Source of the DNA: a virus
Reading direction: 5' to 3' (one strand)
DNA: 64,000 bases
Virus record (IMG/VR): IMGVR_UViG_3300026097_000805
Span: 64,001 to 128,000 of that record
Position numbers and translations under genes: made by a program. The notes under the pieces were generated by a model that ran no database searches, had not been told where the DNA came from, and saw nothing but the letters and a program-made list of their open reading frames with translations. Below, in pieces: positions 52,811 through 54,234 of this stretch. Numbering within the stretch: the stretch's first letter is position 1; each line of letters begins with the position of its first letter.

Positions 52811-52834
52811 TTTGACAATTTAGATACAATATTT
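52811..52834. repeat. Trailer arm of the 24-bp inverted repeat enclosing tRNA array 1
   Basis: TTTGACAATTTAGATACAATATTT is the exact reverse complement of 54211-54234. Confidence 0.92.
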
Positions 52835-52838
52835 TAAA

Positions 52839-52913
52839 TGGTACACCGTAGGGGAATCGAACCCCTCTTTCCTGCGTGAAAGGCAAGCGTCCTAACCGAT
52901 AGACGAACGGTGC
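52839..52913 (-). tRNA. tRNA-Glu(TTC)
   Basis: Canonical cloverleaf, CCA. Confidence 0.95.
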
Positions 52914-52918
52914 ATATA

Positions 52919-52995
52919 TGGCGGAACCGACGAGACTCGAACTCGCGACATCCTGCGTGACAGGCAGGCACTCTAACCAACTGAGCTACGGCTCC
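52919..52995 (-). tRNA. tRNA-Asp(GTC)
   Basis: Canonical, G73, CCA. Confidence 0.96.
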
Positions 52996-53001
52996 AATAA
53001 T

Positions 53002-53094
53002 TGGCGGTGAGGGTGGGATTTGAACCCACGGAACGCTATTAACGTTCGTCTGTTTTCAAGACAGGTGCAATAAGCCGGACTCTGCCACCTCACC
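53002..53094 (-). tRNA. tRNA-Ser(TGA)
   Basis: Class II, long variable arm, G73, CCA. Confidence 0.95.
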
Positions 53095-53101
53095 AATAAA
53101 T

Positions 53102-53387
53102 TGGCAGCCCGTTAGCCACACACCGTTGGAATGATGCTTGTGACCCCTACACTGTAATAGCCCTGCTGTCTAGTTTATCAGTCTAGGGCACAAACTATTG
53201 TTTAGGTATAGGACTTTTGCTTCTCACTAAAGACCGCCACGGACCAACGGACGGCACTCTTTAGAACTAACACTAATGCAAAGAGCAAGTGGTTAACCAA
53301 TGCATCGACCTAGTTACTTGATAGACTATATCATATCTTTCGCTACTATCGGGCGGTTCAGGCCCTTATCGCCGTCTCTTTCGAGCT
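53102..53387 (-). ncRNA. Unidentified ~286-nt structured RNA ending in CCA
   Basis: 5' AGCUCG pairs with 3' CGGGCU before G-CCA; several internal stems; sits in a tRNA slot of the array; no listed ORF. Confidence 0.6.
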
Positions 53388-53397
53388 AGTGTGTAGT

Positions 53398-53473
53398 TGG
53401 TAGCGGGAGCAGGAATCGAACCTACCTCAGTCCGGCTTATGAGACCAGTGAGTTCCCAGAACTCTATCCCGCA
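53398..53473 (-). tRNA. Initiator-like tRNA-fMet(CAT)
   Basis: 1:72 mismatch (U-U), GCGGG acceptor, CCA. Confidence 0.85.
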
Positions 53474-53476
53474 ACT

Positions 53477-53550
53477 TGGAGCGGATACCGAGAATCGAAC
53501 TCGGACGATCACGTTGGCAACGTGAGAGGCTACCTTTACATCATATCCGC
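53477..53550 (-). tRNA. tRNA-Gly(GCC)
   Basis: U73, CCA. Confidence 0.93.
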
Positions 53551-53554
53551 AATA

Positions 53555-53630
53555 TGGTGGAGATACGCGGGATCGAACCGCGGACCTGAAGCTTGCAAAG
53601 CTACTGCTCTCCCATCTGAGCTATATCCCC
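53555..53630 (-). tRNA. tRNA-Ala(TGC)
   Basis: G3-U70, CCA. Confidence 0.96.
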
Positions 53631-53635
53631 ATTAA

Positions 53636-53712
53636 TGGTCTCGGTAGATGGATTCGAACCACCGACCCTCTGGTCCCAAACCAGATGCGCTACCAGACTG
53701 CGCTATACCGAG
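53636..53712 (-). tRNA. tRNA-Pro(TGG)
   Basis: Canonical cloverleaf, CCA. Confidence 0.96.
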
Positions 53713-53719
53713 TTTAATA

Positions 53720-53802
53720 TGGTGCCCTGGGGGAGACTCGAACTCCCACTCCGAAGAACTGGTACCTAAAACCAGCGTGTCTACCAATTCCACCACCAGG
53801 GC
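53720..53802 (-). tRNA. tRNA-Leu(TAG)
   Basis: Class II, CCA. Confidence 0.95.
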
Positions 53803-53808
53803 AATTTA

Positions 53809-53883
53809 TGGTGCTGATGGAGAGAATCGAACTCCCAATCTACGCATTACAAGTGCGTTGCCTTACCATTCGGCCACATCAGC
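53809..53883 (-). tRNA. tRNA-Thr(TGT)
   Basis: Canonical cloverleaf, CCA. Confidence 0.95.
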
Positions 53884-53889
53884 AATATT

Positions 53890-53964
53890 TGGAGCGGGTG
53901 GACGGGATCGAACCGACGACACCTGACTTGGAAGGACAGTGCTCTACCACTGAGCTACACCCGC
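53890..53964 (-). tRNA. tRNA-Gly(TCC)
   Basis: U73, CCA. Confidence 0.95.
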
Positions 53965-53968
53965 AATA

Positions 53969-54057
53969 TGGCGGAGCGACTGGGAGTCGAACCCAGTGAA
54001 CGCGGTTAGCGTTCTACGGATTAGCAATCCGCTGCATTACCATCCTGCCCCCGCTCC
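53969..54057 (-). tRNA. tRNA-Ser(GCT)
   Basis: Class II, G73, CCA. Confidence 0.95.
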
Positions 54058-54127
54058 GTATGTGTTTGGCTCTACCCTCCCCTCTGGGCGATTTAACTAA
54101 CGAGGCATCTTGCGTTAGTACCATGTT

Positions 54128-54202
54128 TGGCTCCCGGTGTTGGAATCGAACCAACCAATGACGGATTAACAGTCCGCTCCCCCACCTTGGGGGCAACCGG
54201 GA
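54128..54202 (-). tRNA. tRNA-Asn(GTT)
   Basis: U1-A72, G73, CCA. Confidence 0.93.
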
Positions 54203-54210
54203 ATAAACCT

Positions 54211-54234
54211 AAATATTGTATCTAAATTGTCAAA
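54211..54234. repeat. Leader arm of the 24-bp inverted repeat enclosing tRNA array 1
   Basis: Exact reverse complement of 52811-52834. Confidence 0.92.

Follow-up and report, generated by a model that had tools for sequence, protein, structure and literature searches.

An inverted repeat overlapping an rrn-type boxA encloses a phage tRNA array and probably forms a leader-trailer helix like those of rRNA operons

The DNA analysed here is a stretch of 64,000 nucleotides, called the window below, which covers positions 64,001 to 128,000 of the IMG/VR virus record IMGVR_UViG_3300026097_000805; the record is 179.6 kb long and is estimated to be ~50% complete. All genes of the region described, its 20 tRNA genes included, lie on the minus strand, and 12 of the tRNAs form an array (array 1) in the order Asn, Ser, Gly, Thr, Leu, Pro, Ala, Gly, Met, Ser, Asp, Glu. 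A first-pass annotation, made from the sequence alone, had claimed that an exact 24-nt inverted repeat closes this array and had likened it to an rRNA processing stem. Sequence comparison confirmed the repeat: 52811-52834 and 54211-54234 are exact reverse complements over 24 nt, and the match extends to 27 nt with one mismatch (52808-52834 and 54211-54237). The arms had also been placed correctly, 8 nt ahead of tRNA-Asn (which starts at 54202) and 4 nt past tRNA-Glu (which ends at 52839), and the segment between them, described as ~1.4 kb with 12 tRNAs, measures 1376 nt between the perfect 24-nt arms and holds 12 minus-strand tRNAs. With up to 3 mismatches permitted, a search of the window still found the 24-mer at just these two sites, one per strand, and 100 dinucleotide-preserving shuffles contained no match, which puts the repeat far beyond chance. 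The pair 52811-52834/54211-54234 is the sole near-perfect inverted repeat of at least 20 nt in the 64 kb, and these two copies are the only ones of the arm 24-mer in the whole 179.6-kb record.

Read in the direction of transcription, the locus consists of the terminator of an upstream unit, a promoter (P1), a hairpin, a boxA element overlapping the leader arm of the repeat, array 1, the trailer arm, a second promoter (P2), a small open reading frame (ORF), a terminator, a second tRNA array (array 2), a third promoter (P3) and protein genes (Table 1). The leader arm begins at the third base of CGCTCTTTGACAA. The small ORF and the terminator form a unit (52588..52729) that was found after the trailer arm in every relative examined; array 2, with 8 tRNAs, follows the terminator at 52598-52627. 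A scan with Rfam between the two arms detected tRNAs only.

Table 1. Features of the tRNA locus, listed in the direction of transcription (positions are those of the window; MFE, minimum free energy)
Feature	Position	Strand	Remark
Intrinsic terminator of the upstream unit	about 54322-54355	(-)	
Promoter P1, predicted, sigma70-type, TTGACA-17 nt-TATAGT	54273..54301	(-)	11/12 consensus matches
boxB-like hairpin, 8-bp stem, 5-nt loop, ends 1 nt before boxA	54241..54261	(-)	MFE and centroid folds
rrn-type boxA, CGCTCTTTGACAA	54227..54239	(-)	
Leader arm, perfect over 54211-54234	54211..54237	(-)	overlaps the 3' 11 nt of boxA
tRNA array 1, 12 tRNAs, Asn first, Glu last	52839..54202	(-)	
Spacer in array 1, 70 nt	54058-54127	(-)	
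tRNA-free spacer in array 1, 303 nt	53095-53397	(-)	
Trailer arm (anti-boxA), starts 4 nt past the tRNA-Glu 3' end	52808..52834	(-)	
Promoter P2, directly 3' of the trailer arm	52767..52795	(-)	
Small ORF, 25 codons	52652-52729	(-)	
Strong intrinsic terminator with T run, ahead of array 2	52598-52627	(-)	

The sequence that the leader arm overlaps has the features of the boxA antitermination element of rRNA (rrn) operons. Over boxA and the TTTA behind it, CGCTCTTTGACAA is closely similar to the E. coli rrn leader. It fits the gamma-proteobacterial consensus GYTCTTTAANA at 10 of 11 positions, with G for A at position 8 (PMC5725501). We searched about 185,000 bacterial and archaeal genomes for the 18-mer GCTCTTTGACAATTTAGA and found it in genuine 16S leaders and in a 23S spacer. 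Its distance to the 16S 5' end is ~230-245 nt in four Hyphomicrobiaceae genomes, 76 nt in a Vogelbacteria genome and ~315 nt in an Oligoflexia genome; in a deltaproteobacterial genome it precedes 23S by ~60 nt. In one of these operons (L146, from Hyphomicrobiaceae; L- and G-numbers denote contigs of relatives or bacterial rRNA loci compared with the window), a genuine 16S leader-trailer helix of 30 bp with 2 mismatches starts 2 nt after GCTCTTTGACAATTTAGA. Because of its sequence, its position and its identity with bona fide rRNA leaders, we identify the leader motif as an rrn-type boxA; by analogy, NusB/NusE would bind to it.

The boxA leader is shared by other phages. A 20-mer containing boxA has exact copies in 13 IMG/VR contigs, some of which belong to phage records of 280-330 kb; lengthened to a 21-mer, it has exact copies in 23 metagenome contigs. 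In the related leaders examined, boxA usually lies behind a sigma70-type promoter, at a position equivalent to that of P1, and a short hairpin, and tRNA arrays lie nearby in those where tRNAs were scanned. A hairpin of 5-8 bp with a variable stem sequence ends 1-2 nt before boxA in 14 of 18 related leaders. These hairpins were read from single-sequence folds; RNAalifold on 13 leaders gave no structure, as MAFFT misaligned hairpins of unequal length. The arrangement of a hairpin followed by boxA corresponds to the boxB-boxA order of rrn leaders. No GU-rich, boxC-like motif is present in the 25 nt between boxA and tRNA-Asn, a place that is occupied by the leader strand of the helix.

We folded the predicted precursor of 1467 nt. 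Both the MFE and the centroid structures contain the boxB-like hairpin and a 27-bp closing helix formed by the two arms, and the energy of the arm duplex is -32.5 kcal/mol. In the window, L092 and L143, no downstream segment of 50 nt pairs better with the leader than the true trailer, which has z scores of about -6.6 to -6.8. RNAduplex was uninformative on the long inputs of rrn loci, for which a short complement search was used.

Relatives of the locus were reached via the neighbouring phosphoesterase gene, the small ORF, the trailer core and the boxA leader. An exact search for the arm in viral contigs gave no matches; the flanking oxygenase used as a probe retrieved distant loci only, and the phosphoesterase probe gave the first useful relatives. 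Because a near-identity search of phage GenBank records returned single-tRNA matches only and a protein search with the DNA ligase gave at most 36% identity, the phage has no cultured relative and no host assignment. Both arms were found on one contig in six lineages, the window included, with 640-4105 nt between them: 1376 nt in the window, 4105 nt in L198, 1397 nt in L092, 2691 nt in L202, 3220 nt in L204 (same type as G001, which consists of L062 and L132) and 640 nt in L143 (= L208). The enclosed content is highly variable. The window, L198, L202 and L204 have an Asn-to-Glu array of 12-14 tRNAs inside the helix, and their trailer arms begin a few nucleotides past tRNA-Glu. In L092 and L143, the interior is cut to 3-5 tRNAs, an ORF and RNA-like stretches, with the arms still at the boundaries.

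The first-pass annotation had proposed to look for compensatory changes in homologs, and such changes were found. When the arms of the six lineages were laid out position by position, positions 1-24 were paired in all six. Position 17 is C:G in 2 lineages and G:C in 4, position 20 is U:A, A:U or C:G, and position 24 is U:A or A:U, so that these three positions have changed on both sides. Internal one-sided changes number only two (position 15 in L204 and position 9 in L143), and both are U-G wobbles in the sense RNA; the antisense RNA would have C-A mismatches at these positions. L198 has one terminal U-U. Cross-pairing gave a similar picture: a leader paired with its own trailer has no internal non-pairs and, paired with the trailers of most other lineages, 1-3; the arms of L202 and L204 are interchangeable. 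Beyond positions -3 to 24 the complementarity is sporadic, the helix ends being constant (24-27 bp) though the flanks diverge; the extent of the helix is thus itself conserved. In the distant relative L133, a perfect 12-nt complement of the 3' flank of boxA lies 5.2 kb downstream and ends exactly at the end of the last tRNA. Since the pairing is kept in six lineages, with changes on both sides and wobbles compatible with the sense RNA only, the pairing of the arms has most likely been selected at the RNA level. Complementarity had thus been checked in relatives, as the first-pass annotation had asked, and was conserved.

These results, taken together, make it probable that the arms are the two strands of an rrn-like leader-trailer helix on a Nus-antiterminated tRNA operon, with RNase III as the plausible processor. 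The earlier likening of the repeat to an rRNA-style processing stem is upheld in this respect by the co-variation, the sense-strand wobbles, the rrn-identical boxA, the promoter and the boxB-like hairpin. A perfect duplex of 24-27 bp is a textbook RNase III substrate, and the phage helix is plausibly one by analogy. The leader-trailer helices of rrn operons, of 25-40 bp, are RNase III substrates (PMC10250234). The accompanying statement that rrn stems include boxA does not hold in general, as the E. coli 16S helix holds boxC and not boxA (PMC10250234). Circularisation of the array, which had been suggested along with processing, found no support.

Nus binding, antitermination, helix formation in vivo and RNase III cleavage are the steps that we infer, and they could be ordered as follows. 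Host RNA polymerase would start at P1 and transcribe the hairpin and boxA, which would recruit NusB/NusE and other Nus factors by analogy with rrn and lambda (PMC10250234, PMC5725501). The Nus-modified polymerase would be fast and Rho-resistant over the 1.4 kb of untranslated RNA. The leader would meanwhile be kept near the RNA exit channel, as boxA-tethered leaders of rRNA are proposed to stay there until the trailer emerges (PMC10250234). Pairing of the emerging trailer would start on the 14-16 nt that lie free behind boxA, from where the helix could extend through boxA itself. The resulting leader-trailer helix of 24-27 bp would tie the precursor ends together and meet the size need of RNase III, whose cut would take off the boxA leader, reduce the outer ends of tRNA-Asn and tRNA-Glu to short tails that RNase P and 3' exonucleases, respectively, could process, and part array 1 from the downstream RNA of P2 and the small ORF.

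Several observations weigh against this interpretation. Promoter P1 is known from its consensus match alone, and no RNase III gene was found in the phage record, which is about half complete. The helix covers most of boxA, so that helix formation and NusB/NusE binding would be mutually exclusive, and the E. coli rrn helix holds boxC instead. Just three positions co-vary, and the six lineages are related, so that the changes amount to a minimum of about four double events. Gene conversion acting on the two DNA copies might likewise maintain their similarity, although it predicts neither fixed ends nor a bias of wobbles towards the sense strand. In some relatives an arm is missing: L124 has lost the leader copy by a deletion that took away the promoter and hairpin and the first part of boxA, with the trailer arm persisting; L190 has the leader arm and has lost the region that would carry the trailer; L008 has a small ORF at the expected site of the trailer arm, and its contig stops short of the leader site; and in L195 a partner arm is absent within 7.6 kb. 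Many boxA leaders of more distant phages have local hairpins instead of a long-range helix. Because some relatives have lost one arm, the helix is dispensable.

In all six lineages the complementarity reaches the boxA core, unlike the helices of E. coli (PMC10250234) and L146, which lie downstream of boxA, and the trailer arm is always placed just ahead of the small ORF and the intrinsic terminator preceding array 2. A helix that forms in RNA with a main job other than RNase III processing, such as stripping of NusB/NusE by the trailer or tying of the ends for folding or protection, would fit these features, and the 16S helix is essential even without RNase III (PMC10250234). We consider such a reading unlikely, as RNase III, in whichever host possesses it, would cut a perfect duplex of 24-27 bp, and the overlap may just serve to reach a duplex length acceptable to RNase III. 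We give a rather small chance to the idea that the trailer is a programmed anti-boxA, which would pair at its toehold, invade boxA and evict NusB/NusE at the end of array 1, rendering the polymerase termination-competent just ahead of the unit of small-ORF attenuator and terminator by which array 2 would be gated. If true, the locus would have its own means of switching Nus antitermination off, one that is absent from rrn operons, where the helix avoids boxA.

Action of the arms at the DNA level, as recombination or inversion sites, as paired sites of a DNA-binding protein or as a repeat maintained by gene conversion, had been raised in part by the first-pass annotation, which named inversion or recombination as an alternative. 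The exactness of the repeat around a discrete segment, the cassette-like differences in gene content between the arms among relatives, and the ability of concerted evolution of DNA repeats to mimic compensatory change speak for it. The array, however, has the same orientation as its promoter and neighbours in all six lineages, and contigs of the DNA run X1 that span the two arms show the native arrangement. No strand-switch joint that would report inversion of 52835-54210 is listed in two DNA runs (assembled contigs, in which rare forms could be missed), and no gene for a serine or tyrosine recombinase (resolvase and integrase families) was detected in the 180-kb record, although at ~50% completeness such a gene could lie elsewhere. 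The outer flanks of the arms have no target-site duplication, and the arm has no internal dyad symmetry. With one orientation, no recombinase and no duplications, the locus does not resemble an invertible segment of the Hin/Gin type, an insertion sequence or a miniature inverted-repeat transposable element. The one-sided changes would pair, as wobbles, in the sense RNA and not in the antisense RNA, and the repeat ends are fixed; gene-conversion tracts would vary. The alternative of inversion or recombination thus received no support, and we regard any DNA-level role as improbable. Least credible to us, to the point of being very improbable, is that the trailer arm is a functionless relic, left by an inverted duplication of the leader or by decay of a divergent promoter whose TTGACA faces away from P2. 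The arm does hold a perfect -35 hexamer, the leader copy in L124 has become the -35 of a working-looking promoter, and several lineages carry a single arm; independent decay would be expected of a relic, however, and instead three positions have changed on both sides with the pairing intact in six lineages, and no -10 is conserved behind either copy.

Three other roles were tried for the arms and rejected. As a sigma70 promoter, the arm has no -10 conserved at a distance of 16-18 nt in either orientation across the relatives, L124 with its deletion excepted. As an upstream element or operator of P2, the trailer arm would not be expected in L143, which keeps the arm with the small ORF directly after it and is without P2. 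As a second boxA for the opposite strand, the reverse complement is without the GCTC start. In L124 itself (7530-7560, minus strand), a remnant TTGACA of the leader arm lies 17 nt before TAATAT, directly before tRNA-Asn; the remnant of boxA was apparently recruited as the -35 of a promoter.

The rrn-like leader-trailer helix can be set beside known systems. The antitermination complex of rrn operons contains NusA/B/E/G, SuhB and S4, and the rrn leader has the order boxB-boxA-boxC. The phage leader shares with rrn leaders the order of promoter, hairpin and boxA, and its boxA 18-mer recurs unchanged in true rRNA leaders. Likewise as in rrn operons, a long-range, co-varying helix, here of 24-27 bp, closes a precursor of several stable RNAs; as in the L146 operon, the helix starts right beside boxA. 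The E. coli helices measure 25-40 bp for 16S and 27 bp for 23S (PMC10250234). Unlike those of rrn, the phage helix encloses tRNAs and spacers only, with no rRNA gene, and overlaps boxA itself and not a separate boxC, no boxC-like motif being present; it is phage-borne, with a single boxA and no internal spacer copy, and some relatives manage without the helix. The nut sites of phage lambda provide the other precedent of a phage with a site for host Nus factors (boxA, with a CGCTCTT core) beside a hairpin in an early leader. The nut order is boxA then boxB, unlike the hairpin-then-boxA order seen here and in rrn; the RNA downstream is a tRNA array here and not mRNA; and nut sites are without a long-range partner. 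No N-like protein was identified for the phage locus. The tRNA cluster of phage T4 comprises 8 tRNAs and two small stable RNAs made as polycistronic precursors that are processed by host RNases. The present locus is similar in being a phage tRNA cluster, in having presumed stable RNAs other than tRNA embedded in it, and in maturation by host nucleases, which we would expect here; to our knowledge, no boxA leader and no leader-trailer helix of the whole cluster has been described for T4. In literature searches of incomplete coverage, we came across no phage tRNA array for which a boxA leader or a leader-trailer helix had been described.

Discussion of phage tRNA arrays usually turns on codon usage or counter-defence, and how kilobases of untranslated, Rho-exposed RNA are transcribed and matured is hardly asked. 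The present comparison indicates that the solution of host rRNA operons, namely boxA antitermination together with a helix that joins the ends, has been copied by a widespread group of marine jumbo phages. The interest of the locus lies in its clean, perfect helix, in the overlap of the helix with boxA and in the linkage to neighbouring attenuator-like units. It is a compact natural test bed for the proposed RNA-chaperone role of the antitermination complex and for the entry of RNase III into tRNA maturation, and the overlap of helix and boxA, placed ahead of an attenuator-like unit, suggests a way of switching antitermination off.

In the window (52652-52729, minus strand) and in L198, L204, L092, L143, L105 and L124, the small ORF behind the trailer arm varies in step with the tRNAs downstream of it. 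In the window, the core of the peptide is MMKHIQQYCIRWF, and array 2 consists of Trp, Ile, Tyr, Lys, Gln, Cys, Met and Phe tRNAs. The peptide of L198 has I in place of Y, and its array 2 is without tRNA-Tyr. L092 has a peptide rich in K, Q, S, W, C and P, followed by Trp, Lys, Pro, Ser, Gln and Cys tRNAs; L124 has a peptide with W and PP, followed by Trp and Pro tRNAs only. This correspondence supports the view that the small ORF would be a leader-peptide attenuator for array 2. Just upstream of P1, an ORF of 29 codons (54385-54474, minus strand) is followed by an intrinsic terminator (about 54322-54355), and its middle part encodes nearly only amino acids for which array 1 has tRNAs (Asp, Thr, Pro, Gly, Ser, Glu, Asn, Ala and Leu). 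P1 lies downstream of the terminator of this ORF, and array 1 would have two inputs.

The interior of the array also differs among relatives. The 303-nt spacer of the window (53095-53397) has no match in Rfam and an unremarkable folding energy (z = 0.18), and gave just two short BLAST matches among relatives. The close relative L008, unlike the window, carries an insert in array 1, a GOLLD RNA (2413-2872; Rfam RF02032, 185.9 bits vs a cut-off of 150) with an embedded tRNA, behind its own promoter. L008 also has an ORF resembling HNH endonucleases (about 240-612) at the 5' end of tRNA-Asn, with the first bases of the tRNA duplicated upstream of the ORF, which may represent the insertion of a homing endonuclease into the array. 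A stretch of ~230 nt between the leader arm and tRNA-Asn is found in L092 (6270-6500, minus strand), L132 (1290-1490, minus strand) and L008 (1-240); it has three T-arm-like hairpins with loops of the GGTTCGA type within an inverted repeat, and is absent from the window, where the arm abuts tRNA-Asn. One contig assembled from a metatranscriptome spans the trailer-arm region of a relative; it may stem from carried-over DNA or from RNA still unprocessed, and we did not count it as evidence for or against cleavage.

The record of the window has a single leader boxA. Some more distant relatives have two boxA leaders in the same orientation and several kilobases apart (L133, at 6697 and 13636; L135, at 5276 and 421; L138, at 3602 and 5095; L144, at 5940 and 3847); these phages have several successive RNA units, each led by a boxA. 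Among jumbo-phage contigs with the same boxA leader, L134 (668-743), L135 (1399-1473) and L141 (2462-2539) encode tRNAs with a CTA (amber) anticodon, which hints at stop-codon suppression or recoding in this group.

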